From: Patescibacteria group bacterium
GTDB lineage: Bacteria; Patescibacteriota; Minisyncoccia; Phycocordibacterales; UBA918
DNA length: 64,000 bases
Direction: 5' to 3'
NCBI GenBank assembly: GCA_019752815.1
Contig: JAIELQ010000014.1
Span: 1,035-65,034 of the forward strand
Part shown: positions 40,832 through 60,247 of the stretch, one piece after another
How the letters are laid out: each line of letters opens with the position of its first letter
How positions within the stretch are numbered: position 1 is the first letter of the stretch
Position numbers and translations under genes: made by a program
The notes under the pieces: model-generated
The model's input: the letters and a program-made list of their open reading frames with translations, nothing else
The model's database searches: none
Told to the model about the DNA's origin: nothing

Positions 40832-43800
40832 ATGAGTTTTTACCCGTCAAAAAATAAATCACGTACCGTACTGATAGCCTCAGGACTCCTTTTGATTTTA
40901 GGGATTTATTTCATGGCGAGTTTGGTGAGTGTAGTATGGGCGGCGCCTAATTTGCAGATTAACTACCAAGGTAAACTCACTAACGCCAGCAACGTCGCCG
41001 TCGCAGACGCCGGGTACCAAATGGAATTTAGCTTGTACACGACTGACGTCGGTGGGACTGCCATCTGGACAGAAACCCGTACCGGTGTGAATGAAGTAAT
41101 TGTCGACAACGGTCTGTTCTCAGTAATGCTCGGTAGTGTCAATTCGCTTGCCGGCGTTGATTTTAATCAAACGCTGTATCTGGGAGTAACCGTTGAGGCT
41201 GATTCAGAAATGACCCCGCGCAAGGTCCTAGGTGCAACACCAGCTGCCTTTGAGGCAAATAACGCGACTACGGTAGGTGGAGTAGCCTCAACATCATTGT
41301 TGCGAAATGATCGCATTGGTACGATCGCAACCACCTCAGCATCAACCCTGCTTACTATTACGCAAAGCGGCACCGGTGATATTTTAAATTTGTTTGATGG
41401 CGGTACTGAAGTCTTTAGTGTGCTCGATGGTGGAAATGTTGGGATTGGCTCAACCTCACCATCAGCTAGATTAACAGTGGGTGGGAATGCCTTTATCGCG
41501 GGTAACCTCACCGCTACCGGCTCTCTGAACATTGCTGGCACCTCCACCCTCGCCACTACCACTGTCTCTTCGCTCGCTATCGGTTCACTATCAGGTCTCT
41601 TGTTCGGTACCGCAGGCAACGTATCTACCATCGCTACCTCAACCCTCGCGATTGCACTCGCAGACACCACCGGCACCTTAGCTGCTACTCGTGGCGGAAC
41701 CGGACTCTCCACCATTACCCAAAACCAACTGCTGATTGGTGGAGCCGGTAACACCTGGACACAAGTGGCGACGAGTTCATTGGGGCTCTCCGCTGCCTTC
41801 ACCACCATTGCGCAACTCGACACCCTCATCACTGACGTGACCGGCGTGACCGGTACCGGCAGCTTTGTATTGTCGGCGTCACCGACATTCACCGGCACCA
41901 GTATCTTTGCTAACTCCAGTACCACCAATGCCACCACTACCAACGCCACCACCACGAACTTCACTATTACCGGGCTGACTTCTGGCCGGGTACCGTTTAT
42001 CACAACTGGTGGACGACTTACTGATTCGGCGAACTTGGCGTTTGATGGGACACGTTTGTCGACAGTTAACTTTGGTGCGAGTGGCACGTCATCGCTTTTA
42101 GGTGCTGTTTCAATCGGAACATCCACCCAGCCCTATCTCCTCACGGTGGCGGGTACATTTGGGGTAGTTTCATCGAGTCTCAGTCCAGTGTTTACGGCTG
42201 ATGCGACTACCGGTCGCGTTGCTATTGGCACCAGTACAGCTTCAACTACTGAGACGCTGACGATTGCCGGGGGTTCAATTGATGTACTTCCAAGCGGGCT
42301 CCGTATTGTCGGACAGCTCGACACACTCACTGATAGTCAGGCCGGTCTCGTAGTTGAAGATGGCATTGTGTATGGAGTATCTAATAATCCAGCGACTGAT
42401 TTACATATTGTTGACGCTAGTAATCCACAAAGCCCACGTATCCTTAGTGAGACTAGTGCACCGAGTTCGGGGGATCTAGTTAAAGTTGGAAATTACTTGT
42501 ATATGTTTGGTGGACTCAGTTCTATTGGCGAAGTTGAAGACATTTCTAATCCAAGTGCACCAGTCACAGTCGGAACATTTGATATGGGACAAACAACGCG
42601 AGAAGCAGTTGTGGATGGAAACTACATTTTTGTGGGCACTAATAGTGCGACGACATCTGTGGTTGTGTATGACATCACAAACCGTATCAACCCACAACAA
42701 ATTGCCATCATTAATGCAGGAGCAGCGGTCACTGATTTATCAGTACACCAAAACAAACTCTATCTTGCACTTGCGAGTACTACCGCTGCTTTGCGCATTT
42801 ATAATATTCAAAATCCTGTCGTGCCGACTCTCCTGGGTACGGCTGCTGCCTCATCAACACCAACTGCTATTACCGCGACTAACGACCGGGTGTACCTCGG
42901 TGCGAACGTCAGTGGTAACCGAGAATTGTATGTCTACCAAACGACTAACCCGACTAGTATCCAACTCTTGACCTCGATTGATATTACGACCTCGGTCAGT
43001 GACATGATGGCGGTGGACGAGACCTTATATGTGACGGGTAACTCAGTCCGGGCTTTTATCGCGTATGATATTTCTTCGAGTACGCAGATTATTGAGCAGG
43101 GTCGAGTAAGTCTTGGAGCCAGCACGATCTATGATTTTGATATTGAAGGGCAGTATGCCTATGTGGGTGGACAGGTTCCGACTCAGGGCTTAGCAATTAT
43201 CAAACTATCTGGACTCACTGCACCATCTGTTCAATCGGGCGCCCTCTACGCTGAACAATTACGTGCCCTGCAAGCAAATATTTCCGGCAATCTTAATGTC
43301 GCTGGTCGAGTCGCTTTTGGTCTCGATGCTTCAATTGCCCGAAGGCTTGATGTCGGAACGTCTCTAACAATCGGTACCACGTCAACTTCAAGTAACGCAC
43401 TGACGGTGGCTGGAAACGCGGCATTATTTGGCAATCTCACAATAACTGGTACCACCACCATCTCTAACCTCGCCCTCACCGGCGTCTTCCGCGACGCCAC
43501 CAACGCCTCCGGCACCCTCGGCCAAATCCTCCAATCAACCGGCACTTCAACTCGCTGGGTCGCCACCTCATCACTCGGCCTCCTTACTTCTGCTATCACC
43601 GGTATTGGTCCAGCTGGTCAAATCCAATCAGGCCCAACTATCACCCTTGCCACCTCAACCGGCTCATTTAACGGTCTCACCCTTGGTACCACCATCACCG
43701 CCACCGGCAACACCATCACCTACACCCCAAGTATCACTGGAGCGCTCACCAATGCCGGCATCGCCACCCCATGGTTATCATTTGCAACCACCAGTACCGG

Positions 43801-46800
43801 ATCAGATATTAGTTTCAGTAGTGCCTCATCAACTCTTGGTGGTACCGTTACCCTTAATATTCCGAACGCCGGCCCGTCTGCACGTGGACTCTTAACCAGT
43901 GCTGACTGGACTACCTTTAACGGCAAGATCTCCAGTACCTCACTTGATACCATTGCGGAACTCGACACCCTCATCACTGACGTGACCGGCGTGACCGGTA
44001 CCGGCAGCTTTGTGCTTTCAACCTCACCGACATTTACAGGGACCGCATCATTTGCGAGTACTACGAACTCCGGACAACTCACCGTGACTGGTACTTCAAC
44101 TCTCGCTACAACTAGCGTTTCCTCCCTCGCGATCGGTTCACTCTCTGGTCTCTTATTTGGTACCGCAGGCAACGTATCTACCATCGCTACCTCAACCCTC
44201 GGTATCGCGCTGTCTGACACCACCGGCACACTGGCTGCTACTCGTGGTGGAACCGGACTTTCCTCATATGCTACTGGTGATTTGATTTATGCCTCTGGCG
44301 CGAACACACTCGCTAATCGAACTATCGGCTCAACCGGTAATGTACTCTCGGTGGTTGGTGGGGTGCCAACGTGGGTGGCTACCTCGACACTTGGTTTGAG
44401 TGGGTTGTCGACGTTCCTCGGGCTAACTGATACACCATCTTCATACACTGCCAACCGTATCTTCTTTACTAATTCAGGGGCTACCGCGGTGACTGACAGT
44501 GCGAACTTTACCTTTGATGGGACACGATTGTCGACACTTAATCTCGCAGTAACTGGCACTTCAACATTCACTGGCACCTCAACCTTTGCCACCAGTACTT
44601 TTAGTCGAATTAACATCGGCACCACAACATCAGCAGGATTGATTACACTCGCCGGTGGCGGTGTGGTCGCTACTACGCCTAATAATCTTCGTGTCGCGGG
44701 CACCTTTAACACGAGTGGGAGTGCAAACGGAGTAGCGGTTTCTGGACGCTATGCGTACGTGGCTGATAGTTCTGCTGGTCTGCAGATTATAGATATCTCG
44801 CGACCAAGTAGCCCGTCTCTTGAGGGTACCTTTAATACGTCTGGTAACGCATATGACGTGAAAGTGGTTGGACGCTATGCGTACGTCGCAGATGGTGCGA
44901 GCGGTCTACAGATTATTGATATTAGTAATCCAGCCAGTACGACATTGGTTGGAACATATGATACAAATAACGCCGAAGGTCTTGATGTGTCTGGCCGGTA
45001 CGCGTACATCGCTGATGCAACCACTGGTTTAGTAATTGTTGATATCAGTAACCCAAGTAACCCAACCTTGGTAGTGAGTTATGACACTACGGGTATATTT
45101 GCAACTGATGTGGCGGTGGTTGGCCGCTACGCATATGTCGCAGATGGACTTGCCGGTCTTCAGATTATTGATGTGACCAATCCAGCGGTACCGGTTTTGA
45201 TGAGTACGTTTAATACTGCTGATAATGCGACGGGTGTGTATGTTGTGGGCCGCTATGCGTACGTCGCAGATGGTGGTTCGGGTCTGCAAATCGTAGATAT
45301 TAGTAATCCAGCAATTCCAACCCTCGCTGGTTCAGTTGATACACCAGGCACCGCTAACGATGTGGTGGTAGCGGGTGGTATTGCATATCTCTCAGACTTC
45401 TCAAGTAGTCTCCAGGTGATTGATGTTTCAAATGCAACTTCTCCATTTATTCTCCAGTCATTTGTTACAACTGGAATTATGAACAATGTCGCCATCGCGG
45501 GTCGGTATTTGTATGCTGGTGACAATACAGCTGGACTCCAGATTGTCGATATTAACGGCTCTGATTTCTCGTCACTATTTGCGGGTGCTCTGGGAGCAAC
45601 GGAGGCAAATTTCGATAGTAATTTGATCGTTGGAAACGACATTACTGTTGGAGGCAAACTGTCAGTCGGGCATGATTCGATAATTAACGGCGGACTTACC
45701 ATTATAGGTACCGCGTCTTCTACATTGCTCGGTAATAACACTGGTCCTGGTTTGGTGGTTGCCACTGGCAACGTCGGCATCGGCTCAACCTCACCATCGG
45801 CAAAACTTACCGTTGCAGGTGCTGGATTCTTTGGTGGTAACCTCACTGCTACCGGATCCCTCGCTATTTTCGGAACCAGCACCCTCGCCACCACTTCTAT
45901 CGCTCGACTCGCTCTCGCTGGAGCGTTCCTTGATTCAACGAATGACAGTGGCACTTCTGGTATGGTCTTGCAATCATCCGGCACCTCAACTCGCTGGGTT
46001 GCTACCTCAACGCTTGGTTTTGCAACCGGGGTTTCAAACTTCCTTGCTCTCTCCGACACACCGGATGTATTTACCGCTAATCGAATTCCATTTACGAATG
46101 GTGCAGCGACTGCCTTAGTTGATAATGACAACTTTACTTACTCAAGTAGTACCCAGTTCCTCACTCTAGGGGGTAATCCTTCACTTGAGTATGGTATCAA
46201 CTTTGGCGGAGCGGGCAGAATTTATGGAACAAATTCGTTAGGCACTGAAGATCTTGTTATGATTAGTTCAAACAATATTTTCTTGGCTAGTGGTGATGAT
46301 TCTAGTAGTATTGATGTGAGTCTCGGAGGCGTATTTAGTATCTTCGCAGCCACTTCGACTACTATAATTAGTCCAGTCATTACTGCATTGGGTGACCTTA
46401 CTGTAACAGGATCTCTTGGTATCTCAGGCACCACCACCCTCGCCACCACTACCGTGACAGATTTGTTTGTCTCGGCTGCACTGCGTGACACAACAAATTC
46501 GGCGGGTACCCTTGGTCAAATCCTCCAATCAACCGGCACCTCAACTCGTTGGGTTGCCACTTCAACCCTCGGCTTTTCTGCCGCCTTCACCACCATCGCT
46601 CAACTCGACGCCCTCATCTCAGACGTGACCGGAGTGACTGGTACTGGAAGCTTTGTGTTATCAGCGTCACCGACGTTTACCGGCACCAGTATCTTCGCGA
46701 ACTCAAGCACCACAAACGCGACAACGACTAACGCCACTACAACTAACTTTGCGATTACCGGACTGACTTCAGGTCGGGTGCCGTTTATTACTACTGGAGG

Positions 46801-49800
46801 GCGACTAACAGACTCGACAAACTTTACCTTTGATGGTTCACGACTCTCAACCCTCAACCTTAATGTGACCGGCACCTCAACATTTACCGGTACTTCGACG
46901 TTTGCGGGGAATGTGGGGATAGGTACTACTACCCCTAGTAGTGTGTTAAGTATTGTAGGGTCACTTGCTCAGCAGGAGTTTGGATTCGGGGATGCCCAAT
47001 ATATTCTTAGAGGTACAAATAGCTCAACAGGTCGTGCTTTCTTTGCTGGTGTGGCCGGTAACGGAGCGTCTGAGCGAGCGGGATATATGAGTGTTGGTTT
47101 AACTGAGATGGTAGTAGGGACACAAAGTTTAGGAGGTAGTATCCCACTCCGTTTTATGACTAATGATGCGATGCGTATGACTATTGATACTAATGGCAAT
47201 ATTGGTATTGGTACAACGACACCAGCATCACGGCTTGATGTATGGGGTGATTTCCGCGTTGGGACAAGTAGTAGCGCGTTAGTGTATGCCAATACACTAA
47301 ATCGACAATTTGTAGTGGGAAGTTCGAGTCTCATAACCGAGAACAATAATGGAGACATTCCACGTATGGCCATTGTTGGTACCCGCACTTCTGGCCGGCC
47401 AACAATGCTCTTAATTGAAGAGGAGGGTGTGGGCCAATTTGAGTCTGCAGCACTGCAATTTGATCGGGCTACTCCATTAACAAATTCCAGCATGGGCCAG
47501 ATAAACTTTATGGATGCGGGGAGTATTGATGCCTGGACTGATGTGGGAGATAATGCCGCTGGTTCACTTCGCTTTAATACTGATACACCAAGTGCAGGTG
47601 GTGTTGTTGAGCAAATGCGCATTACCTCTAGTGGTAATGTTGGAATCGGTACTACAACACCAAATTCACGCCTCACCGTCTCAGGTAACACCTTCCTCGG
47701 TGGCAACCTCACCGCCACTGGCACGCTCGCAATCCTCGGCACCTCAACCCTTGCCACCACTTCTATCACTCGACTGGCTCTCGCCGGCGCCTTCCTCGAT
47801 TCAACTAATGCTTCAGGTACCTTGGGTATGGTGTTGCAGTCAACGGGTACTAGTACTCGCTGGGTGGCAACTTCGACACTTGGTTTCTCAGGTGGCGGAG
47901 CGTCTACCTTCCTCGCTTTAACTGATACTCCGTCTTCATACACCGCCAATCGGGTAATGTTTACTAATGGAGGAGCGACTGCCTTGACGGATAGTGCGAA
48001 CTTCACTTTTGATGGTTCACGACTCTCAACCCTCAATCTAAATGTGACCGGTACAAGTACATTTATTGGTACGACAACCCTCGCTACTACAACTATTAAC
48101 GGTTTAGTGCAGATGGGCACCACCTCAGTAGATTCGCGATTTAATTTGGATGTAAACAATTTTGCGGTGGCTGGTACAGCGGGACTTAACCGCTACTACA
48201 CATCGACCAATGCAGCGAGTGGTACCGTACAATTTGGTGAGTTGGCGTACAGCCGACTCAATACAACTGCTACCACAACGTATGTCGGTAGTATGTTCCG
48301 CGTGGAAGACAGTACGACACGGGGTAATACGGTGCGAGGACTCGAAGTGCAAACCAACCGGGGCTCAAATACCCAAGGTGAAAACACGGCACTCTCTGGA
48401 TTTGCACGAACATTCGGTGTTCGTGGATTCACCAGTGCCGACGCGGGTAGTGTGTTTGAACCAGCAGGAGGATACTTTGAAACGGGCGGTACAACGCAAG
48501 GTAACGCCATTCGCGGATACTCATCAACGATCACGAGTGCCGGATTGCTCTCGTTGTTCCAGGATACTTCAGTGTTTTCAGGAACTGGTTTGACGATGAA
48601 TCTGGGTAACGGTACCGGTTCATTTACGGGTAAGTTCGTGGATTTACAAGTGGCAGGATCAAGTCGTTTCAACGTTGCGTCTACCGGAACAATGTTTACG
48701 CTCGGTGATATTAGTATCAATTCAACCAACACTGACCCAGCCGCTAATAATGTGGTGGGAATGTACCTCGGAGCTAATGGTTTTGCTAGTATCAACCGTT
48801 CAGCGAATCCAGCGATGAATCTCGGTCGCAGTAACGACGGCGCTGTCTTACAGTTCTACAGTGCGGGTGCAGTCCAAGGCAGTGTCAGTATCGCTGGCGC
48901 AACAGTGTCATACAACGCGTTTACCGGTAGTCACTTTGGGCTTACGGGCAGTACAACCTACCCAATGGGTACACTGATGCAATTGTCAGGTGATAATCAA
49001 AGTTACAACGATGATCCAGCCTCAGAAATCCTCTACGGCATGGAAGAAACAACCGAAGAAAATAGTAGTCTCGTCATTGGATCATACCTCTCGGTGCTCG
49101 AACCATCACAAGCAGAATCAACGGCAAACCCAACTCTCGTCATGGCGGTGGGTAACGGAGCGCTGTGGGTGGCTGATCAAGGTGAAGATATTACACGCGG
49201 TGATTACTTGATCTCATCAAATATTGCCGGACATGCCGAGCGTGATCCACAAACAGCCCCAACTAGTTACATCATCGCCCGGGCATCAGAAGATATTAAC
49301 TGGAACGAAGTAACGACTGAAATTAATGGTGTGAAGCATAAGCGCATTACGGTCTTCTTTGAAAACTTCACTAGGTCAAATATTGACTTGGCACTGATTG
49401 CTTCAAGTACGGTTGAACTAGCAGACATTACCGAAGAATCACAAACCGGACAATTTATGACAGGACTATTTGCGAAGTTAACCGAATGGTTTGGTAGTGC
49501 GCAAAACGGTATCGAAGATATGTATGCGAACGTCTTTAATGCGAGTGAACGCATCTGTGTTGATGGTGAATGTCTCACCGCGGACGATATCCGCGACCTC
49601 AAGGATGCGTTGCAAGGCGGAGGAAGTAATAACCCGCCACCACAAAATAGTGGCGACGGAGGTGGGTCTGGTGAGAGTGGTGACACGGGCGGAGAAACTC
49701 CACCACCAAGTGACGAAGGAGGTGGAGAGGCAGGAGGTGGTGGTGATGAAATTCCACCACCAGCTGAGGGTGGTGACACGGGCGGAGAAACTCCACCACC

Positions 49801-49876
49801 AAGTGACGAAGGAGGAAGTGTCGGAGGGGATGGAAGTAGTGAAGGCGGGACAGGAGGAGACGGTAGTGGCGTATAA
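40832..49876 (+). CDS. giant surface protein (3014 aa): signal/TM anchor, fibre-like repeats, two LVIVD-repeat beta-propellers, acidic Gly/Pro-rich C-terminal tail
   Basis: N-terminal hydrophobic segment. Repeated GN(L)TATGSLxIxGTSTLATTS and TSTRWVATS modules. Canonical LVIVD repeats RYAYVADxxxGLQIIDISNPxxPxLxGTxxT, 9 copies or more (about 44.7-45.6 kb). C-terminus GGETPPPSDEGG repeats. Confidence 0.7.
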   Translation: MSFYPSKNKSRTVLIASGLLLILGIYFMASLVSVVWAAPNLQINYQGKLTNASNVAVADAGYQMEFSLYTTDVGGTAIWTETRTGVNEVIVDNGLFSVMLGSVNSLAGVDFNQTLYLGVTVEADSEMTPRKVLGATPAAFEANNATTVGGVASTSLLRNDRIGTIATTSASTLLTITQSGTGDILNLFDGGTEVFSVLDGGNVGIGSTSPSARLTVGGNAFIAGNLTATGSLNIAGTSTLATTTVSSLAIGSLSGLLFGTAGNVSTIATSTLAIALADTTGTLAATRGGTGLSTITQNQLLIGGAGNTWTQVATSSLGLSAAFTTIAQLDTLITDVTGVTGTGSFVLSASPTFTGTSIFANSSTTNATTTNATTTNFTITGLTSGRVPFITTGGRLTDSANLAFDGTRLSTVNFGASGTSSLLGAVSIGTSTQPYLLTVAGTFGVVSSSLSPVFTADATTGRVAIGTSTASTTETLTIAGGSIDVLPSGLRIVGQLDTLTDSQAGLVVEDGIVYGVSNNPATDLHIVDASNPQSPRILSETSAPSSGDLVKVGNYLYMFGGLSSIGEVEDISNPSAPVTVGTFDMGQTTREAVVDGNYIFVGTNSATTSVVVYDITNRINPQQIAIINAGAAVTDLSVHQNKLYLALASTTAALRIYNIQNPVVPTLLGTAAASSTPTAITATNDRVYLGANVSGNRELYVYQTTNPTSIQLLTSIDITTSVSDMMAVDETLYVTGNSVRAFIAYDISSSTQIIEQGRVSLGASTIYDFDIEGQYAYVGGQVPTQGLAIIKLSGLTAPSVQSGALYAEQLRALQANISGNLNVAGRVAFGLDASIARRLDVGTSLTIGTTSTSSNALTVAGNAALFGNLTITGTTTISNLALTGVFRDATNASGTLGQILQSTGTSTRWVATSSLGLLTSAITGIGPAGQIQSGPTITLATSTGSFNGLTLGTTITATGNTITYTPSITGALTNAGIATPWLSFATTSTGSDISFSSASSTLGGTVTLNIPNAGPSARGLLTSADWTTFNGKISSTSLDTIAELDTLITDVTGVTGTGSFVLSTSPTFTGTASFASTTNSGQLTVTGTSTLATTSVSSLAIGSLSGLLFGTAGNVSTIATSTLGIALSDTTGTLAATRGGTGLSSYATGDLIYASGANTLANRTIGSTGNVLSVVGGVPTWVATSTLGLSGLSTFLGLTDTPSSYTANRIFFTNSGATAVTDSANFTFDGTRLSTLNLAVTGTSTFTGTSTFATSTFSRINIGTTTSAGLITLAGGGVVATTPNNLRVAGTFNTSGSANGVAVSGRYAYVADSSAGLQIIDISRPSSPSLEGTFNTSGNAYDVKVVGRYAYVADGASGLQIIDISNPASTTLVGTYDTNNAEGLDVSGRYAYIADATTGLVIVDISNPSNPTLVVSYDTTGIFATDVAVVGRYAYVADGLAGLQIIDVTNPAVPVLMSTFNTADNATGVYVVGRYAYVADGGSGLQIVDISNPAIPTLAGSVDTPGTANDVVVAGGIAYLSDFSSSLQVIDVSNATSPFILQSFVTTGIMNNVAIAGRYLYAGDNTAGLQIVDINGSDFSSLFAGALGATEANFDSNLIVGNDITVGGKLSVGHDSIINGGLTIIGTASSTLLGNNTGPGLVVATGNVGIGSTSPSAKLTVAGAGFFGGNLTATGSLAIFGTSTLATTSIARLALAGAFLDSTNDSGTSGMVLQSSGTSTRWVATSTLGFATGVSNFLALSDTPDVFTANRIPFTNGAATALVDNDNFTYSSSTQFLTLGGNPSLEYGINFGGAGRIYGTNSLGTEDLVMISSNNIFLASGDDSSSIDVSLGGVFSIFAATSTTIISPVITALGDLTVTGSLGISGTTTLATTTVTDLFVSAALRDTTNSAGTLGQILQSTGTSTRWVATSTLGFSAAFTTIAQLDALISDVTGVTGTGSFVLSASPTFTGTSIFANSSTTNATTTNATTTNFAITGLTSGRVPFITTGGRLTDSTNFTFDGSRLSTLNLNVTGTSTFTGTSTFAGNVGIGTTTPSSVLSIVGSLAQQEFGFGDAQYILRGTNSSTGRAFFAGVAGNGASERAGYMSVGLTEMVVGTQSLGGSIPLRFMTNDAMRMTIDTNGNIGIGTTTPASRLDVWGDFRVGTSSSALVYANTLNRQFVVGSSSLITENNNGDIPRMAIVGTRTSGRPTMLLIEEEGVGQFESAALQFDRATPLTNSSMGQINFMDAGSIDAWTDVGDNAAGSLRFNTDTPSAGGVVEQMRITSSGNVGIGTTTPNSRLTVSGNTFLGGNLTATGTLAILGTSTLATTSITRLALAGAFLDSTNASGTLGMVLQSTGTSTRWVATSTLGFSGGGASTFLALTDTPSSYTANRVMFTNGGATALTDSANFTFDGSRLSTLNLNVTGTSTFIGTTTLATTTINGLVQMGTTSVDSRFNLDVNNFAVAGTAGLNRYYTSTNAASGTVQFGELAYSRLNTTATTTYVGSMFRVEDSTTRGNTVRGLEVQTNRGSNTQGENTALSGFARTFGVRGFTSADAGSVFEPAGGYFETGGTTQGNAIRGYSSTITSAGLLSLFQDTSVFSGTGLTMNLGNGTGSFTGKFVDLQVAGSSRFNVASTGTMFTLGDISINSTNTDPAANNVVGMYLGANGFASINRSANPAMNLGRSNDGAVLQFYSAGAVQGSVSIAGATVSYNAFTGSHFGLTGSTTYPMGTLMQLSGDNQSYNDDPASEILYGMEETTEENSSLVIGSYLSVLEPSQAESTANPTLVMAVGNGALWVADQGEDITRGDYLISSNIAGHAERDPQTAPTSYIIARASEDINWNEVTTEINGVKHKRITVFFENFTRSNIDLALIASSTVELADITEESQTGQFMTGLFAKLTEWFGSAQNGIEDMYANVFNASERICVDGECLTADDIRDLKDALQGGGSNNPPPQNSGDGGGSGESGDTGGETPPPSDEGGGEAGGGGDEIPPPAEGGDTGGETPPPSDEGGSVGGDGSSEGGTGGDGSGV

Positions 49877-49926: not shown

Positions 49927-50694
49927 ATGTACAGCAATCAAACACAATCACTCAATCATCTCGTACACAGAGTATTTTCTGTGTGGATTTTTGTACTGTT
50001 AGTACTGATGTTCGGGGTATGTCTCTCATTTTTGGTGGTACACAATGATGCATATGCTGCCGGTGTTGACTCCTGGGCCACCCCATCAGCTGCTGGTGAT
50101 AATGATATTTGGAATAGCGTGACCTTCGGTAATGGAGTATATGTTGCAGTGGCGTCAAGTACTGTTGCCGGGGGTAATAATGCGGTGATGTATTCTAGTG
50201 ACGGTATCACCTGGGCCACGACTTCAGTGTCTGGTGATAATGATATTTGGAATAGCGTGACCTTCGGTAACGGTCTTTTTCTAGCAGTGGGAGCAGGGTT
50301 GGGTATCGACCGGGTCATGTATTCTGATAATGGTATCACCTGGGCCACGACTTCTGCCGCTGGTAATAACGATCTTTGGAATGATGTTACCTATGGTAAT
50401 GGTGTATATGTTGCGGTGGCGTCAAGTACCGTAGCGGGAGGTAATCATGCAGTGATGTACTCCAGTGATGGTGTTACCTGGACTACTGCCACGGCCGCTG
50501 ATGATAATGACTATTGGGAAAGTGTCACTTTTGGCAACGGTCGTTTTGTGGCCGTTGGTCGTGGTGGTGACCGAGTCATGTATTCGAGTAACGGTATTGC
50601 CTGGACCGCTGCGACCCCTGCCGGTAATGATGATACTTGGATGTCTGTTACCTACGGCAACGGTCGATATGTGGCGGTGAACCGGGGCCGATAG
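49927..50694 (+). CDS. N-terminal fragment of second giant surface protein (TM anchor plus BNR/Asp-box repeats); frame broken at 50686-50694
   Basis: YSSDGITWATTS...GDNDIWNSVTFGNGV repeats (SxDGxTW Asp-box). The same repeat continues in the +1 frame in the next ORF. Confidence 0.55.
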   Translation: MYSNQTQSLNHLVHRVFSVWIFVLLVLMFGVCLSFLVVHNDAYAAGVDSWATPSAAGDNDIWNSVTFGNGVYVAVASSTVAGGNNAVMYSSDGITWATTSVSGDNDIWNSVTFGNGLFLAVGAGLGIDRVMYSDNGITWATTSAAGNNDLWNDVTYGNGVYVAVASSTVAGGNHAVMYSSDGVTWTTATAADDNDYWESVTFGNGRFVAVGRGGDRVMYSSNGIAWTAATPAGNDDTWMSVTYGNGRYVAVNRGR

Positions 50695-50698
50695 AGTC

Positions 50699-53600
50699 AT
50701 GTACTCAAACGATGGTATTACCTGGGCCACCTCAAGTGCCGCCGGTAATAATGATAGCTGGATATCGGTCACGTATGGTAATGGGCATTATGTGGGAGTT
50801 GGTAATTCTGGTGACCGAGTCATGTACTCAAACGATGGTATTACCTGGGCCACCACCACTGCTTCCGGTGATAATGATAGCTGGAATAGTATCACGTACA
50901 TAAATGGTCGATTTACGGTAGTCGGATCTGGACCGGGTACTAACCGAGTCATGTACGCGAATGCTTTTAATATTCTAGAACAAACGGCGTTTCGTTTCCG
51001 GGCTGATGACGGCAGTGAAATTGCGGCCAGTTATCGTGGAGGGCAAAACCAAAACCTCACCACTCCTACCAGTACCGCATTTCGATTGCGTGCTCAGGTA
51101 GCATCAACCATTGATCAGAATCTCCTTGGTGGATTTAAACTGCAGTACCGAGAAACTACTGATGATAGCTGGTTTGATGTCGGAGTTGATCAGGGTGCGC
51201 CATCAATTGTGGCGGCCACTTCAAGTCGTACTGCTGGGGACGTGCTCTCTCGTACTGTCGCGTTACCGACTTGTACGGCCGGAAATCTTTTGTTAGCGGT
51301 CGTTAGTTATGATGGTGTCGGTTCGGCAACTACCACGCTTTCTCAGGGTTGGACCAAATTTGCGGAACGCTCCAATGCACTTGTCGTATCGAGTGTGCTG
51401 TTTTGGAAATATTCGACGGGGAACGATACTCTCACTGTGCAAACCCCGGTGTCGGAGGAAAGTTCACATGTTGTGTACTGTATTGCAAATGCTGGTGCCC
51501 CATCAGCTTCGGGGGCTGATAGTAGTGGTACCGGCAGTAATCCACCCTTACATCGCGCCGGGCCAACCAGACAGCATCTCTGGATTGTGGTCCGTTCGGG
51601 TGATGCGCAAATACAGGCGACGGCGGCACCAACAGGCTATACAGCACCCATTGTGATAACGGCCAATACCCTTACTGGTGCTTCAACGTATACAGCATTC
51701 TCCATGTTCCTGTCTTCGACAACTGACCCCGGTACTTTTACGAATGCGGTTGAAGAGTGGGTGGCCTGGACGATTGCGGTGCCGCCACGACATACACCAG
51801 TCGTGGGGACGGCTGGCATGATGACCCATGCGACTGCAACCGGTGCCAATAATACCCAATATGGTTCGATTGCCTGGACTAATCCAAACAATGCTCGTTC
51901 ATCTGATAATGCTCGGGCGACCTTGACGGTCTCTAGTACGACAGCTTCTAACAACCTAACGGTTTCAAGTCTTGGTTTTGCAATTCCAGCCGGAGCAACC
52001 ATTCTGGGGATTGAGGCTGAAGTAGAAAAAACTCAGACGGGTGGTGCAGCAGGTAATGTGCGTGACAACAGTATCCGACTGCTAAAAAATGGTACGACTA
52101 CAGGTATTGCCAATCTTGCTCAGACAGCCACCAACTGGCTGTTGACCACCGATTACCTTATTACCTACGGGAGTACAACCGAGTTGTGGGGGACGACGTG
52201 GACGCCTGCTGATATTAACAACTCGGGCTTCGGTCTCGCAATTGCCGTCCAGGGTGCTGCTGTGGGAGCTAACCGGGTGGCTAACATTGATAACGTGATT
52301 ATCCGTGTACACTACCGCTTACCGGGTAGTATTGCGCTGGCCTCATCAACGTTTATAGCCAGTGGGGCACCGTCAACCACTGCACAACTGCTAACCCCGG
52401 GCACCATTGCCGCTACCTCAACCGGCTTTTCGGCTGGTCGGGTGACCGATGATGTGGCCGTGCTCAATCAGTTGTCAGTCGTTACCAGTCGTTATACCGA
52501 ACTCGAGTGGACACTGGTTGCTACGGGTACGGCCACGACCGGTTCACAATATTTACTTCGGGTGGTTTCTGAGAATGGGGACCCACTGCAAGCCTACAAG
52601 ACAACACCATTTGTACGTATCAGCAACGCAACCACTACCGGAGTGATAAACATTTCAGGCAGAGTGCTCGGTCCAACCGGTTCTGCAACCATACCAGCAG
52701 GTGTACCGATTGTGGCTGCGGTAGGGCAATTAAATCCTGTGCTATACGCCACTACCACCTCCGCCACTGGTGCGTATACATTTTCCATAGCTACCGGGAC
52801 CACACCGGGTGCGAGCTGGGATGGAGTATCAGCTGTGGGTAATAATGATATCTGGCAAAGTGTGACCTACGGCAATGGTCTCTTTGTGGCCGTGGGTAGT
52901 ACATCAGTTGATAATGTTATGATTTCAACTGACGGAATCGCCTGGGCTACTACTTCAGCGGTCGGTAACAACGACTCGTGGGAGAGTGTAACCTACGGCA
53001 ACGGCCGCTTTGTGGCAGTGGGTGATGCCGGGGATCGGGTGATGTATTCAGATGAGGGTATTGTCTGGAACACCACCTCAGTGGCTGGCAATAATGATAG
53101 TTGGCGAAGTGTAACCTACGGCAACGGCCGCTTCGTAGCGGTGGGTAGTGCTGGTGACCGGGTGATGTATTCAGACGATGGTATATCCTGGACTGTAGTG
53201 ACGGCTCTTGGTAATAATGATTTCTGGCAAAGTGTAACCTACGGCAACGGCCGCTTCGTAGCGGTGGGTGATTACCTGCAGCCTGGAGATGGGGTGATGT
53301 ATTCAGACGATGGTATATCCTGGACTGTAGTTTCAGCTGCTGGAAGTGACGATACGTGGCGATCGGTAACCTACGGCAACGGCCGCTTTGTAGCGGTGGG
53401 TGAGGGTGGTGACACTCGTGTCATGTATTCGACTGACGGTATCTCTTGGACTACCGCTTCTGCTTTAGGAAACAACGATACTTGGACATCAATAACCTAC
53501 GGCAACGGCCGGTTTGTAGCGGTGGGTGTTGGTGATGTTGTCAGTGAACAGGCGATGTATTCGACTGACGGCATCTCTTGGACGGTAGCGTCTGCACCAG

Positions 53601-56600
53601 CAGGAGCTAATACGTGGCGATCGGTAACCTACGGCAACGGCCGCTTTGTAGCGGTCAGTGCTTCTGGTCAGCCAGTGATGCTTTCTGATGCCGGTATTGG
53701 CGACACTACTCCTGCCGTCGTCTACACCAATAACGCCACTACCAGTGCAGCGGGTTTTATGATGGGACTCTCTGGCACCACCAGTCAAAGTAATGTCGTA
53801 CTGTATCAAAATGATGTCACCGTATTAAATGCCACCACCTCAGCGACCTCTAGTATTACCAAACTCGATGACATGACTTTCTTTGACAGTTCATTTGATA
53901 GTAATGTGGGCTATAGTGCGTCCCGAGACGGTACCCTCACCTTCACAGATGACCTCCGGGTTGCGACCGGCACTGCTCAGTTTTTGGGTAGAGATTTTAG
54001 AGTCGAGCAAGAAGTTGAGATTCAAGGGGTATTAGATTTATTTGGAACAGCATCAAACACGATTAATAGTCTCGTAGTCGCTACATCAGGTCGACTGGTG
54101 GGAACGCGTAATGGTTTGATAGTCGGCAGCTACAACAATAATGGGACGGTGGTTACGAATGGGGCGACTACGACCTTTGTTGGTTTAACTGGATACAACA
54201 CGCAGTATCCCGTGTTTCAAACCAGTACGACCACCGAATCTGTAGGTAGCACAATGAATGGTATTGCTATGTCTGAAGATGGGACAAAGTTTTTCTATAC
54301 TAACTTTGACCAAGTAAAAGAAGTGACGCTCAGTGTCCCGTACGACCTGCGGACTGGTTCCATCACTCATACTGTAGATCTAGAGAATGGATTTTATATT
54401 ACGACTGAAAGTCTGCATGTGGTGCAGGATGGTCGCAAAATGTATGTCAGTGGCTGGCAAAATGACACGATTAAAGAATACACCCTGAGCGTGCCATGGA
54501 ATCTCTCCACTGCCACGTTTACGGCAAGTACTAGTTTGGGGGCAAATAACTTCCCGCATTCAGTCTTTGTGTCAGACGATGGTCAACATTTGTACTCGAC
54601 CGTGCGGTCGCCAGAGCGAATTCGGCAATACCGCTTTGCGGTGCCGTACGATATCACGAGTCTCGTTTTCGTAGCTTCAACCAGTAATAATGAACGAATT
54701 GCAAGTAACGCTATTTGGGCCAGTCCCGATGGCGAATTTCTGATACAAGCAGGCGCTCAGGGGTCTATTAATCGCTTGCGGATGACGACGCCGTGGGATA
54801 TCACATCCCTAGTGACAGATAACAGTGGCAACAGTGTTTTGACTGAGTTAATCACAGACAATAATCGAGATGTGGAGGGTTTTTGGTTTGATCGTACCGG
54901 TACCAAAATGGTGGCCATAACTGCTGATCGAATCGCGGCCCTCTACACCCTCGGGGCAGACATTGGTGGTAATCTCACGGGGTCATCATCACTTGGTAGT
55001 GTTGTGTTTGACGGTGGGAAGAGCACGTTTGTCTCGTCAGCGAGTACTACCAATTTGCACGTCAATCCGAACGCAATTTTGGTGGCTCCGACGACTACGC
55101 TTAGCATAGCAGGTAATTACCTCAACACAGGTGAGTTTGATCATGCGAGTTTTAACGGTACCGTGGTATTAAGTGGTACAAGTAGTAGTATTACTGGGAG
55201 TACTACCGGTACCAGTAGCTTGAATAATCTGGTAGTAACGGGGAATTATTCGTTTGCTGGGGCCGGTACTACATCGGTGCGTAATATGACGGTGGTACCA
55301 GGTGCAACGCTTAATTTTGTAGCTAATAGTGGACTTGAGGTAGCGGAGAATTATACAAATAATGGTACTACAACTCTCCCAACCACACGCATAGTCGCTA
55401 CTGGTCGGGGGTTTGACTTGTCTCAGGCCCCACTGGGGAACGAATATTCTGTAGGGGCGCAAACCTTTGAACCTCGTGGAATTGAGTTTTCAGCTACCGG
55501 AAGCCTCATGTACATCACTGAGACTAGTTCAAATCAAATATTGGCCTACCGTTTAGGTATTCCGTGGGAGGTGTCAACCGCTAGTTATCTATATGCCACC
55601 AGTGTCGGAGCGGTCTCTTCAAATGTGACCTCGATTAGGTTTAAGCCGGATGGGATGCGCTTATTTGTCACAAATTATGATAATGATTTCATTGCCGAAT
55701 ATGCCCTCTCAGTGCCGTGGGATATCCGTACGACGTCGTTTCTGGCTACGACTTCGTCAGCCTTTAACATAACTAGTATTGATTTCTCTCGTGATGGTAC
55801 GAGGTTCTATGTACATGGTATCCAAAACAATGGCGTAACAAAGCAGTATACCCTGGGTGTCCCGTGGGACCTCAGTACACAAACGTACACTGACGGGTAT
55901 TATAGTACTCCAGCATTTACCTTGGCTAGTACCATTAGTGCTGATGGGACCAGCTTCTTCCAAAAAGTGGGAAGCGCTATAAGACAGTATCGGTTATTGG
56001 TACCACATGACTTTAATACCGTCCAAATTGTCGGTGATTTTGATTTGTCGCCATTTATGGATCATAACGGTGTCGAAGAAATGACCTTTGATAATGATGG
56101 TACACGGATGTACCTCACGAGTAACTTTACTGACAGTGTCTTTCAATTTAATCTGATTGACTCGCAAACGTTCGGAGGCACTATGACCGGCACTTCATCT
56201 CTGGCTAACTTCCGCGCCTCCAGCACGCTGCCGCTAACATTTGCCGCGACCGCTTCCACGAGTGACTTTACGATTGTGCCTGGCGCAGTAGTATACGCTC
56301 CAACCTCTACCCTGATTGTGTCAGGTAATTTCACTAATGCTGGCACCTTTATCCCGCGTGCTGGTACTACTACACTCTCTGGTACTGCTAGAACTATCAC
56401 CGGGAATATCACCTCATTGGACTCTGTCACCAACAGTCCTGACTACGGTCTTGCCAATATTACTGGAACCTATACATATATAGGTAACGGTACGACTTCA
56501 GCGCTCACGATTAATTCCGGTGCGTCTTTGACAGCTCCGAGTAACGGTAGACTAATGATTGCGCATGATTTTATCAATCGCGGTACGTATACCAATAACG

Positions 56601-59600
56601 GTGCGACGACTACGCTTGGGGGTAACTTGCGCTCGGCTGCGACGGGGACTAATGCGCTCGGGAACACTGTTATTGATGCTCGGAGTCAGGGGCAAAACTG
56701 GCAGGCGCTGACACCGGCGGGAAATAATGATGCCTGGATGGATGTCACCTATGGAGAAGGTCGTTTTGTAGCAGTGAGTCAGTTTAGTGGTGACAAAGTG
56801 ATGTACTCAGATGATGGGGTGTCGTGGACCGCATCGGCTGGTACGGCAGGCGATTGGAATGCCGTTACCTACGGCAACGGCCGTTTTGTCGCGGTGGGGT
56901 TTGCAGGCTCTAACCGGGTGATGTATTCCGATGATGGTATCACCTGGAACGCGGTATCGGTTTTCGGTGATAATGACAGCTGGGTGAGTATCACTTACGG
57001 CAACGGCCGTTTCGTAGCCGGGGCGTCTAGTGGCGATAACCGGGTGATGTATTCGGACGATGGTATCTCGTGGAATGCAGTTTCGGTGTTTGGTAATAAC
57101 GATGAATGGAATGCCGTCACCTACGGCAACGGCCGCTTTGTGGCGGTAGGTGCTGATTGTGGTTCGAGTCCTAGTATGATGTATTCCGCTGACGGAATTA
57201 ATTGGGCATCTTCAACTATTGGTATATGTAAAGTGTACGGTGTCACCTACGGTAACGGCCGCTTCGTGGCGGTGGGAGCATTCAGCGGTACCCCAATTCA
57301 GTATAGTGAGGATGGTGTCACCTGGACCCCAACCACAATCTCTTCAGGTAATTGGTATGATGTCACCTACGGTAACGGCCGCTTCGTGGCGGTTGGTAAT
57401 TTTGCGGCGGGTGACGGTTTGGCATATTCGTCTGATGGTGTTAATTGGGCAACCTCATCAGTTGCCGGAAACGACGAATGGTGGCAGGGTATTGCCTACG
57501 GCAACGGCCGTTTCGTAGCAGTGGCTGAAGACGGCACAAATCGTGCAATGGTTGCTCTCCCGCAAACGATATTCAACCAAAACGCCTCCACCACTAACCT
57601 CACCATTACCGGTAGCTCAACGTTAAACGCCTCTGGTACTACAGTCTCTGTTGCTGGCAACTACCAAAACCTCGGTACGCTCACAGCCTCCACTTCGACC
57701 TTTGTATTTAACGGTACTGGACCACAAGTCGCCAGCGGTACGATGTCAGCGAGCAGTAGCTTCCGCAACCTAACCCTCAGTAACACCTCCGGCAACGGCA
57801 CCACCTCACGTTCGATTACCTTTGGCGCACCACTCTCAGTCACGGGAACTTCGACGATTACCGCGAGTACCTCGGTAGCCTTCCAAGCGGGCGCCACCTC
57901 GACGTTCTCGCAGGTGTCGTGGCAGGGGACAGCAGGATCGCCCGTATGGCTACGATCAACTGCCACTGGTACACCATGGAACCTCACCATTACCGGTAAT
58001 AAAACTGTGGATTATGTTAATGTGCGTGATAGTAACGCAACCTCGACGGTGGGTGGTATTACACCTACAAATAGTACGAATGCCGGCAATAATACCAACT
58101 GGATCTTTGGTGGTGGACCGGTAGCGCAGGTTTGGAACGCAACAGATTGGACCTTGTTCGATACCATTACTATTCAAGAAGAAAACATCGATGCCACCCT
58201 CACTGATTTCCCGGTGTACGTTAATCTCGCTGATCTCAGTAGTACATTCTGGAGTACTACACCTGCGGGAGCTGCCTTGGTTGGTACGGACATTCGCGTA
58301 ACAACTGCTGATAATATCGAGATACCTCGTGAACTGGTGTTTGCATCTTCGACACTTGATACGGGTGAGCTACACTTTAGAGCGCCACAGATTTTATCGA
58401 CTACTGATACCACATTTAAGATTTGGTACAACGGGACAACGACGGGGGATTATGCTCGCACCGCCACCTACGGAACTGAGAATGTGTGGACGAATGATTA
58501 TGTAGCCGTCCTTCACCTTAATGAAGTGGGTAACAGCACTGCAAACGGCTATCTCGATTCAACAACAAATGGTTTTGATGGTACCGGTATCTCTATGACA
58601 GCCACTAGTTCGGTTACTGGAAAGTTAGGTGTTGCTCAAGATCTTGACGGTGTCAGTGACTATATCGATTTGGTTGGAAGTGTCACCTTGGGTAGTTCAA
58701 CCATTAGTACGTGGGTTAATGTTGCCAGTGCAGATCTTCAGCCGTGTGATGGTCTGGTTTTCTCACGCGGGACAAATGTGAGTGGTATTAATGTCGGAAA
58801 CTGTTCCGATGGTTTAAATGTCGGCTATCACTGGAATGATGCACAGTTTGGATGGGCTACCGGTTCGCCAGTGGTGACAAACCGATGGTCCTATATAGCA
58901 CTTGCAGTTGGGGCAGATAGAGCTACTACGTTCAGTAATGGTACATCAACAACAAATGTAGCCACGCACGCAACTTCAACATTTGATGATATACGCATTG
59001 GTGAAGATGAATTTAATGACCGACGATTCAATGGTCAGGTTGATGAGGTTCGCATAGCCTCTACTACTCGTTCGGCAGCTTGGCTCAAAGCTGAGTACAC
59101 AAACCAATCCACCACCACCAACTTCTACACCGTTAACTTGTCTGGGGTAGTTGGCTCGTCTACAATCAGTAACTCCGTCGCGGGGCAGGTTGGGAACGCC
59201 TTCACCTCCCAGAACGTGACCGACGGTACGCTCTATAGCTTCAGGGTAGTACCAAATAGTGGTACAGCTGATGCCACCGAAGTGAGAATTGACGTTACCG
59301 GCCTCCAGAACGTTAACCCTGAAAACTTTAGTAACATGCGGATAGCGTGGGACTTTAATGAAAATGGAACTTTCGACGTTGAAGATTTTGTGATTGTCGA
59401 CAGCGGCCTCTTTACCGCAAATGGTCAAAACGGTTCAATCGCATTTGATGATAATAACGTAACCTTTGGTGGCTCAAATACTCTAACCGGACCAATTAAC
59501 CTGCTTATAATCGCTAACTGGACTGCTCCGCAGAACGGATCGTTTATGACTCTCCGCTTGAATCCTAGTGGACTGACCCTTGTTGATGGTAACGGTGTGC

Positions 59601-60247
59601 AACAAATATTCGGTTCAGTATCGAGTGTTCAGCACTTCCGTAATAATCGTGGTGGTGGTGGCAGTAGTGCTAGTGCTGGCGGTAACGCGCCAGCTGGAGC
59701 AGGGAACGTGGGTGGTGGTGGCAGTACGGGTGGAGAAAATATTGGCAATGATCCAGATTTCTTCTCACCAAGTAGTAATAGTGGATCGTGGTCAAGTGGC
59801 GCCAATGCCTATGACGGTGTTGACGGCACGTATGCCACAACGAGTGCCGCCTACAATCATAGTTACAGTAATCATGGTTTTGGTATCCCAGGCACCAACG
59901 TGATTAGTGGAATTATTGTGAAGTTAGAGTTATCTGGTTCAACTGCGGCTGGAACAGTTAATGTGCAATTGTCATGGGATGGAGGTAATACCTGGACTAC
60001 TGCCAAGACCAGTCCAACCCTCACGACTGCTGATGCGGTCAGAACCTTTGGTTCTCCGAGTGATCTCTGGGGTCGTGCGTGGAGTGCGAGTGAATTTACC
60101 AACCCTAACTTTGCGGTGCGCATTGCCGGTAATCCAAGTAGTAATACCGTGAGGCTCGACGCGATACAGGTTCGGGTATACCACACCGCCGGTGGTGGTG
60201 GGGCCGGAGGAGGAGGTGGAGCAGGTGGTGGCGGGGGAGGAATCTAA
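50699..60247 (+). CDS. second giant surface protein, main part (3182 aa): BNR/Asp-box propeller repeats, SVPWDxxT repeat module, LamG/ConA-like domain, poly-Gly C-terminus
   Basis: 12 or more copies of VMYSxDGIxWxxxS...NDxWxSVTYGNGRFVAVG. LamG-like: FDGTGISMTATSS...DGVSDYIDLVG...RFNGQVDEVRIASTTRSAAWLKAEY. C-terminus AGGGGAGGGGGAGGGGGGI. Confidence 0.65.
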   Translation: MYSNDGITWATSSAAGNNDSWISVTYGNGHYVGVGNSGDRVMYSNDGITWATTTASGDNDSWNSITYINGRFTVVGSGPGTNRVMYANAFNILEQTAFRFRADDGSEIAASYRGGQNQNLTTPTSTAFRLRAQVASTIDQNLLGGFKLQYRETTDDSWFDVGVDQGAPSIVAATSSRTAGDVLSRTVALPTCTAGNLLLAVVSYDGVGSATTTLSQGWTKFAERSNALVVSSVLFWKYSTGNDTLTVQTPVSEESSHVVYCIANAGAPSASGADSSGTGSNPPLHRAGPTRQHLWIVVRSGDAQIQATAAPTGYTAPIVITANTLTGASTYTAFSMFLSSTTDPGTFTNAVEEWVAWTIAVPPRHTPVVGTAGMMTHATATGANNTQYGSIAWTNPNNARSSDNARATLTVSSTTASNNLTVSSLGFAIPAGATILGIEAEVEKTQTGGAAGNVRDNSIRLLKNGTTTGIANLAQTATNWLLTTDYLITYGSTTELWGTTWTPADINNSGFGLAIAVQGAAVGANRVANIDNVIIRVHYRLPGSIALASSTFIASGAPSTTAQLLTPGTIAATSTGFSAGRVTDDVAVLNQLSVVTSRYTELEWTLVATGTATTGSQYLLRVVSENGDPLQAYKTTPFVRISNATTTGVINISGRVLGPTGSATIPAGVPIVAAVGQLNPVLYATTTSATGAYTFSIATGTTPGASWDGVSAVGNNDIWQSVTYGNGLFVAVGSTSVDNVMISTDGIAWATTSAVGNNDSWESVTYGNGRFVAVGDAGDRVMYSDEGIVWNTTSVAGNNDSWRSVTYGNGRFVAVGSAGDRVMYSDDGISWTVVTALGNNDFWQSVTYGNGRFVAVGDYLQPGDGVMYSDDGISWTVVSAAGSDDTWRSVTYGNGRFVAVGEGGDTRVMYSTDGISWTTASALGNNDTWTSITYGNGRFVAVGVGDVVSEQAMYSTDGISWTVASAPAGANTWRSVTYGNGRFVAVSASGQPVMLSDAGIGDTTPAVVYTNNATTSAAGFMMGLSGTTSQSNVVLYQNDVTVLNATTSATSSITKLDDMTFFDSSFDSNVGYSASRDGTLTFTDDLRVATGTAQFLGRDFRVEQEVEIQGVLDLFGTASNTINSLVVATSGRLVGTRNGLIVGSYNNNGTVVTNGATTTFVGLTGYNTQYPVFQTSTTTESVGSTMNGIAMSEDGTKFFYTNFDQVKEVTLSVPYDLRTGSITHTVDLENGFYITTESLHVVQDGRKMYVSGWQNDTIKEYTLSVPWNLSTATFTASTSLGANNFPHSVFVSDDGQHLYSTVRSPERIRQYRFAVPYDITSLVFVASTSNNERIASNAIWASPDGEFLIQAGAQGSINRLRMTTPWDITSLVTDNSGNSVLTELITDNNRDVEGFWFDRTGTKMVAITADRIAALYTLGADIGGNLTGSSSLGSVVFDGGKSTFVSSASTTNLHVNPNAILVAPTTTLSIAGNYLNTGEFDHASFNGTVVLSGTSSSITGSTTGTSSLNNLVVTGNYSFAGAGTTSVRNMTVVPGATLNFVANSGLEVAENYTNNGTTTLPTTRIVATGRGFDLSQAPLGNEYSVGAQTFEPRGIEFSATGSLMYITETSSNQILAYRLGIPWEVSTASYLYATSVGAVSSNVTSIRFKPDGMRLFVTNYDNDFIAEYALSVPWDIRTTSFLATTSSAFNITSIDFSRDGTRFYVHGIQNNGVTKQYTLGVPWDLSTQTYTDGYYSTPAFTLASTISADGTSFFQKVGSAIRQYRLLVPHDFNTVQIVGDFDLSPFMDHNGVEEMTFDNDGTRMYLTSNFTDSVFQFNLIDSQTFGGTMTGTSSLANFRASSTLPLTFAATASTSDFTIVPGAVVYAPTSTLIVSGNFTNAGTFIPRAGTTTLSGTARTITGNITSLDSVTNSPDYGLANITGTYTYIGNGTTSALTINSGASLTAPSNGRLMIAHDFINRGTYTNNGATTTLGGNLRSAATGTNALGNTVIDARSQGQNWQALTPAGNNDAWMDVTYGEGRFVAVSQFSGDKVMYSDDGVSWTASAGTAGDWNAVTYGNGRFVAVGFAGSNRVMYSDDGITWNAVSVFGDNDSWVSITYGNGRFVAGASSGDNRVMYSDDGISWNAVSVFGNNDEWNAVTYGNGRFVAVGADCGSSPSMMYSADGINWASSTIGICKVYGVTYGNGRFVAVGAFSGTPIQYSEDGVTWTPTTISSGNWYDVTYGNGRFVAVGNFAAGDGLAYSSDGVNWATSSVAGNDEWWQGIAYGNGRFVAVAEDGTNRAMVALPQTIFNQNASTTNLTITGSSTLNASGTTVSVAGNYQNLGTLTASTSTFVFNGTGPQVASGTMSASSSFRNLTLSNTSGNGTTSRSITFGAPLSVTGTSTITASTSVAFQAGATSTFSQVSWQGTAGSPVWLRSTATGTPWNLTITGNKTVDYVNVRDSNATSTVGGITPTNSTNAGNNTNWIFGGGPVAQVWNATDWTLFDTITIQEENIDATLTDFPVYVNLADLSSTFWSTTPAGAALVGTDIRVTTADNIEIPRELVFASSTLDTGELHFRAPQILSTTDTTFKIWYNGTTTGDYARTATYGTENVWTNDYVAVLHLNEVGNSTANGYLDSTTNGFDGTGISMTATSSVTGKLGVAQDLDGVSDYIDLVGSVTLGSSTISTWVNVASADLQPCDGLVFSRGTNVSGINVGNCSDGLNVGYHWNDAQFGWATGSPVVTNRWSYIALAVGADRATTFSNGTSTTNVATHATSTFDDIRIGEDEFNDRRFNGQVDEVRIASTTRSAAWLKAEYTNQSTTTNFYTVNLSGVVGSSTISNSVAGQVGNAFTSQNVTDGTLYSFRVVPNSGTADATEVRIDVTGLQNVNPENFSNMRIAWDFNENGTFDVEDFVIVDSGLFTANGQNGSIAFDDNNVTFGGSNTLTGPINLLIIANWTAPQNGSFMTLRLNPSGLTLVDGNGVQQIFGSVSSVQHFRNNRGGGGSSASAGGNAPAGAGNVGGGGSTGGENIGNDPDFFSPSSNSGSWSSGANAYDGVDGTYATTSAAYNHSYSNHGFGIPGTNVISGIIVKLELSGSTAAGTVNVQLSWDGGNTWTTAKTSPTLTTADAVRTFGSPSDLWGRAWSASEFTNPNFAVRIAGNPSSNTVRLDAIQVRVYHTAGGGGAGGGGGAGGGGGGI

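Follow-up and report, generated by a model that had tools for sequence, protein, structure and literature searches.

A frameshift inside the N-terminal propeller divides a giant surface-protein gene of a Patescibacteria bacterium into two reading frames

Two adjacent reading frames are the halves of one gene

The stretch of DNA analysed here (64,000 nucleotides (nt) of contig JAIELQ010000014.1, referred to below as the window) comes from the chromosome of an uncultured Patescibacteria bacterium, with GenBank locus tags of the K2P47_04xxx series and proteins MBY0538598-616. Within it, two adjacent open reading frames (ORFs) in different phases, termed here ORF A and ORF B (Table 1), are the halves of one surface-protein gene of about 3,440 codons. 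We base this conclusion on an orthologue that forms a single ORF, on the period of an internal repeat, on a fold model that spans the junction, and on the lack of start signals belonging to ORF B itself. The locus is an ordinary frameshift-disrupted gene of a known kind, which calls for no new mechanism and no regulated switch.

Table 1. Positions in the window of the divided gene, its junction, its N-terminal domain and the giant gene that precedes it
Feature	Position	Strand	Description
ORF A	49927-50694	+	255 amino acids (aa); 5' part of giant gene; signal/anchor and blades 1-5; premature TAG end
Frame B	50681-60247	+	3' part of giant gene; blades 6-7 and closing strand, then about 3,090 residues beyond these, with a second propeller among them
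Premature stop TAG of frame A	50692-50694	+	product of the frameshift
Frameshift interval AACCGGGGCC	50680-50689	+	only stretch outside the orthologue alignment in both frames
38-nt exact direct repeat, copy 1 (GAGTCATGTACTCAAACGATGGTATTACCTGGGCCACC)	50694-50731	+	starts 5 nt past the shift interval
38-nt exact direct repeat, copy 2	50817-50854	+	start of blade 7
N-terminal seven-bladed beta-propeller	50056-50986	+	repaired residues 44-352; spans the frameshift
Giant gene 1	40832-49876		3014 aa; signal peptide; many LVIVD repeats (Pfam E 1e-89); long T/S/A/G-rich repeats

An earlier annotation made from the letters of this DNA and its list of ORFs (the sequence-only reading) had described the ORF at 49927-50694 as ending in VAVNRGR, and this description is correct: the C-terminal end is ...YVAVNRGR, followed by the TAG at 50692-50694. 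The +1 frame is closed by a TGA at 50678-50680, is open from 50681, reads TGADRVMYSNDGITWAT at the junction and reaches 60247; the listed ORF B is the part of this frame that begins with the ATG at 50699 and extends to the same end (3182 aa). The continuation of the repeat in frame B is not a matter of chance, since GGTGACCGAGTCATG occurs in exactly two copies in the window (50566-50580 and 50810-50824, with 0 expected by chance), which are situated at the equivalent points of the two repeat units neighbouring the break. Just past the break, the codons for D and R (GAT AGA) differ from the GAC CGA of the neighbouring units only synonymously, which shows that selection acted on frame B as far as the break itself. 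Together with the spacing of the repeats and the alignment of the orthologue described below, these copies bear out the earlier claim that the same repeat goes on in the +1 frame into the 3182-aa ORF.

A scan of the genome collection identified a sole orthologue, in another Patescibacteria metagenome-assembled genome (MAG; JAZKFU010000001.1, L002). The comparison of orthologous loci that had been proposed earlier could thus be made with one sequence (n=1), and it reveals a single ORF of 3472 aa, not two separate genes. This ORF starts with MYSN, as does ORF A, is collinear with the sum of ORFs A and B, and is followed on its 3' side by the same 227- and 349-aa genes as are found in the window. 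Repaired A+B residues 1-1373 are 48% identical to residues 1-1364 of the orthologue, and residues 2122-3420 are 58% identical to its residues 2154-3457. When the orthologue was aligned to the window with tblastn, its residues 1-248 matched 49927-50679 in frame +1 and its residues 257-700 matched 50690-52009 in frame +2, the two segments forming one linked hit (E 2e-177). The switch of frame between 50679 and 50690 places the shift within 50680-50689, and at the corresponding position the orthologue has a different, in-frame loop of 8 residues. Homologues of the N-terminal domain behave in the same way: 67 of the 120 best align over at least 285 of the 309 residues in one high-scoring segment pair and are thus continuous across the site. 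The orthologue, the repeat periodicity and the fold model strongly support the proposal that one gene was split by a +1 frame change. One further candidate orthologue, which would lack the N-terminal propeller (P0002/L001), was rejected, as it is a paralogue-like gene of 1184 aa in a different context, adjoining a Y1 transposase-like gene and uninformative on the junction.

The two ORFs differ in the signals that a gene of this type would need. The N-terminus of ORF A (aa 1-45, VFSVWIFVLLVLMFGVCLSFLVV...AYA/AG; ...HNDAYA/AG) forms a hydrophobic signal or anchor, and the N-terminus of ORF B has neither a signal peptide nor a hydrophobic stretch. The ATG at 50699 encodes the Met of the recurring repeat motif DRVMYS, and the sequence on its 5' side is GC-rich coding DNA, in contrast to the AT-rich upstream regions at the other genes of the window. 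To judge from these features, ORF B is not a free-standing gene, with its own start context and a targeting signal both missing; neither a promoter nor a terminator was found at the junction. An alternative genetic code was considered as an explanation of the premature stop and rejected: the stop codons used in the window (22 TAA, 14 TAG and 4 TGA) fit code 11, and readthrough of TAG or TGA would yield only out-of-frame nonsense.

All these features agree with those of coding sequences disrupted by frameshifts, whether pseudogenised or mis-assembled, in which a single orthologous protein covers adjacent ORFs in different frames, a domain is interrupted by the break, and the downstream ORF, as here, has neither start signals of its own nor an export signal. 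Pipelines such as NCBI PGAP mark such genes as "frameshifted". We see no substantive difference from this class, except that the source annotation appears to be unflagged and, to judge from the numbering of the accessions, to keep A and B separate; we infer that the missing flag stems from the lack of a close full-length homologue for annotation. The two GenBank proteins should accordingly be taken together as a single frameshifted gene (about 3,440 codons), and neither the 255-aa nor the 3182-aa "protein" is fit to serve as an independent member of a family.

The break lies inside a seven-bladed propeller

The AlphaFold2 model of repaired residues 44-352 (predicted local distance difference test score 86.2, predicted template modelling score 0.89) contains 27 strands arranged in seven blades. 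Comparison of this model with PDB structures by Foldseek returned the seven-bladed propellers of Ycf48 as the best matches (E 8e-12, template modelling (TM) score about 0.7), and virginiamycin B lyase with TM scores of 0.83-0.87; a profile search of PDB sequences likewise identified Ycf48 (E 5.6e-6), and Pfam reports the EPTP family for the N-terminal domain (29.8 bits against a cut-off of 21). The domain, with its seven blades of about 43 aa, the Pfam EPTP match and Ycf48 at the top of the Foldseek list, thus resembles the Ycf48/EPTP-like propellers. Ycf48 is a photosystem II assembly factor, whereas the propeller described here heads a bacterial surface protein of 3,440 aa, and the identity between them is only 14-15%.

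The repeat had been labelled an Asp-box in the sequence-only reading, and "Asp-box-like" is as much of that label as can be retained. The motif here, S-x-D-G-x-T-W, is one residue shorter than the canonical BNR/Asp-box form S-x-D-x-G-x-T-W, no BNR model is listed by Pfam for the repeat at E <= 0.01, and the family that Pfam does assign is EPTP. The repeat is therefore not the canonical one of BNR/Asp-box sialidases.

In the model, the break is positioned in a tight turn between blades 5 and 6, i.e. inside the predicted domain and not at its boundary, so that neither ORF alone could close the propeller. This position is also relevant to the idea of a genuine functional split, according to which A and B would be two genes whose products act separately or reassemble. 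Such a split could draw on the GenBank numbering, which leaves three accessions between the flanking genes, as if A and B were annotated separately, and on the ATG 5 nt after the stop, from which a coupled restart would be possible. We nevertheless regard it as very improbable: the break falls between blades 5 and 6 of a closed propeller, an export signal is missing from ORF B, the out-of-phase overlap of the frames is of the kind left by an insertion or deletion (indel), the orthologue is one ORF, and the two-ORF layout has been seen in none of the related genomes so far.

Size and position of the lesion, and the question of switching

The start-to-start spacings of the blade repeats are 129, 138, 123, 121, 123 and 129 nt, the unit with the break being the only one whose length is not a multiple of 3. 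Measured from GNG to ATGTAY, the successive units span 66, 57, 66, 51, 49 and 51 nt, and the value of 49 nt for the unit with the break therefore corresponds either to 1 nt over 48 or to 2 nt under 51, i.e. to a net change of +1 or -2 nt. Since each flanking unit has 51 nt, and no other loop of the domain would be as short as 48 nt, a loss of 2 nt (for example from GGCGCC to GGCC) is at least as plausible as a gain of 1 nt; a surplus nucleotide, in turn, could sit in the CC as well as in the GGGG. The earlier proposal of a single extra base in a G-tract consequently holds in part: a net gain of one nucleotide is possible, but its siting in the G-tract is not secure, and the 2-nt deletion fits equally well.

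Beyond the shift interval, the two copies of the exact 38-nt direct repeat (Table 1) begin blades 6 and 7, whose units are otherwise 78% identical. Recent gene conversion may have produced the repeat, at which short-read assembly is at risk of error.

The vicinity of a short G run had also suggested slipped-strand phase variation, in which changes in the length of the tract, at high frequency, would switch the surface protein between ON and OFF. Surface proteins that vary in phase through homopolymers are known from the simple sequence repeat (SSR) contingency loci of Neisseria, Haemophilus and Campylobacter. As at such loci, the product is a surface protein, a class that is often phase-variable in pathogens, and an early frameshift beside a G run in its gene would be equivalent to the OFF state. 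Programs that catalogue phase-variable loci apply experimentally based thresholds of at least 7 G/C, at least 10 A/T, or at least 6 dinucleotide units (PMC6321876), and the tract found here, G4 followed by C2, is far below the cut-off of 7 or more G/C (PMC6321876). Nor is the tract special, because the window contains 108 G4 and 40 G5 runs, this gene by itself accounting for 30 of those of G4 length, and its longest G/C run is 6. The orthologue has no tract at this point, its loop being different and in frame, and the lesion may be a 2-nt deletion and not a change of tract length at all. ON/OFF switching is thus not supported, and we consider it highly improbable.

Equally little speaks for programmed +1 ribosomal frameshifting of the prfB (RF2) type, by which a full-length protein would be made from the shifted messenger RNA. 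Like prfB, the junction combines a +1 change of frame and a stop codon at the shift site, where the TAG follows straight after CGA, the last sense codon of the overlap, with a G-rich element just upstream, a GGGG that resembles a Shine-Dalgarno (SD) sequence; moreover, frame B is intact. Unlike prfB, however, the overlap AAC CGG GGC CGA TAG has no slippery codon of the CUU-U type, and no codon in it would keep three base pairs upon slippage, since the shifts from CGA to GAU, from GGC to GCC and from CGG to GGG each drop a base pair. The GGGG is 1 nt and not 3 nt from the CGA codon, the genes here do not use SD sequences, and neither CGG nor CGA is rare. Downstream of the junction, the RNA is no stabler than shuffled sequence (z = +0.69), no Rfam recoding element was found, and the orthologue is simply in frame without any such arrangement; the stop at the shift site itself has little weight, as any frameshift soon meets a stop. 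Programmed frameshifting is, in our opinion, scarcely credible. We give almost no credence, too, to a variant in which the frameshift is real and full-length protein is nevertheless made, either via low-level +1 recoding at CGA-TAG or via reversion in a subpopulation; if it were true, a short GC-rich site would act as an unconventional, leaky dimmer of a giant attachment protein in a lineage of episymbiotic Patescibacteria.

A recent null allele or an artefact of assembly

The sequence of events that would explain the locus without recoding or switching can be outlined as follows. The gene of about 3,440 codons encodes a giant surface protein of the Patescibacteria bacterium, exported or membrane-anchored, in which a signal or anchor segment and the seven-bladed propeller are followed by about 3,090 residues. 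Where the chain turns tightly from blade 5 to blade 6, an unprogrammed indel (within 50680-50689) would have shifted the frame, and translation from the real start would end at the TAG at 50692-50694, yielding an exported fragment of 255 aa with five of the seven blades. A product of restart at the ATG at 50699 would have no signal peptide and would begin in the middle of the domain. Taken at face value, such an allele would be null, and we expect its products to be non-functional.

As to the origin of the indel, we slightly favour a real and very recent null allele over an artefact, and would give it an even chance. The preference arises because no other gene checked in the window looks broken: a Pfam scan covered 20 ORFs that are neighbours or overlap, ten of the overlapping ones being suspicious, and found no domain split between adjacent ORFs. 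The window also holds 38 A/T runs of at least 7 bases, and an assembly prone to homopolymer errors would have damaged these first. That the lesion would be recent is suggested by frame B, which is open for 3,182 codons and has homology along its length. In an alternative form of this reading, the lesion would be the dominant strain variant captured by the MAG. The fast turnover of this surface-protein locus, described below, also speaks for a real lesion. If the lesion is real, it would add one more case of giant surface proteins being gained and lost rapidly in Patescibacteria.

Several observations weigh against a real allele. The ancestral state is deduced from one orthologue only, with 48-58% identity, and no second assembly was found, as A, B and giant gene 1 are absent, by exact sequence, from the protein collection and the gene index. 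The source is a MAG, and the site lies in internally repetitive DNA (tandem repeats of 121-138 nt), 5 nt before the exact 38-nt repeat, which is where local assembly faults are most likely. The absence of any secondary lesion in about 9.5 kb, i.e. the flawless state of frame B over its 3,182 codons, is what an artefact would produce as well, and the orthologue is intact. The same facts therefore make it a serious possibility, if one short of an even chance, that the gene of about 3,440 codons is intact in the organism and that the indel is a consensus, assembly or sequencing artefact which arose when the contig was built through the repetitive region. Against such an artefact stands the lack of split domains among the 20 ORFs. 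Typical homopolymer miscalls would need a longer run than G4 or CC, and the many longer runs of the window, i.e. the A/T runs mentioned above and G/C runs of up to 6, show no visible damage. Moreover, misjoins mediated by the repeats preserve the frame, since they happen in register, and the sequence with the shift is unique and lies just outside the exact repeat.

Genomic context and turnover of the locus

The genes of the neighbourhood include a member of the Wzy_C (O-antigen ligase) family, murB, secA, obg and gatB. Giant gene 1 (Table 1) shows no similarity to A+B at E 1e-20; in L002, two ORFs on the 5' side of the A+B orthologue match parts of it with 63-77% identity. The orthologue of giant gene 1 in L002 appears split into ORFs of 1844 and 1148 aa, which could be taken for a recurrent frameshift, an interpretation that we rejected: at about 5590-5600 of that contig a run of N is found at the break, with X in both translations, which indicates a gap or a masking artefact and no frameshift.

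On the 3' side of ORF B there are three conserved small genes, one of them related to DUF916/WxL-interacting proteins. The product of the conserved downstream gene of 229 aa has relatives with 76-85% identity, and the genes upstream of these relatives differ widely. In L011, where the downstream protein is 76% identical, a different giant gene of 3430 aa is present, which has only its last ~340 residues in common with ORF B; the relatives with the downstream protein at 81% have unrelated genes upstream; in L005-L010 a giant gene upstream of the conserved gene is absent, and in L012 it is cut by the end of the contig. The C-terminal module comprising the last ~340 residues of ORF B (59150-60247 in the window, 8860-9914 in L011 and 32-730 in L012) is found again, with 57-70% identity, as the end of giant genes that are otherwise unrelated and occupy this locus in related Patescibacteria, and is always followed by the same three genes, of ~230, ~348 (the one related to DUF916/WxL-interacting proteins) and ~254 aa. 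As far as can be judged from these comparisons, the locus is one of fast turnover, in which relatives have different giant genes or none and conservation is limited to the C-terminal ~340 aa and the genes downstream. The arrangement resembles a constant anchor, with partner proteins, on which the "head" can be swapped, and the turnover of the locus points to strong diversifying selection or to selection driven by phages and hosts.

A further relative (L003, JAHZTJ010008501.1) is syntenic with the window at 74-83% nucleotide identity and ends in gatB, before the giant genes. Its synteny extends to the 3' part (from about 23 kb) of a low-GC block at 10000-32200 of the window (GC content 0.385-0.44), in which the relative has insertions of NYN, Fic/RhuM and CofD genes. 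This block is a polysaccharide/glycosylation gene cluster, with GT2 and GT1 glycosyltransferases, FkbM methyltransferases, a sulfotransferase, and SIS, GHMP kinase and HAD proteins, and it also holds a Wzy_C O-antigen-ligase-like protein with TPR repeats.

At about 40 gene starts in the window, the upstream region is AT-rich and has no Shine-Dalgarno motif, which suggests that this lineage may use SD-independent initiation. Finally, a 709-aa protein encoded at 8091-10220 shows weak matches to TrwB/TraG-type coupling proteins and to HerA-like ATPase domains, and hints at a remnant of a conjugation or DNA-translocation system in a Patescibacteria chromosome.

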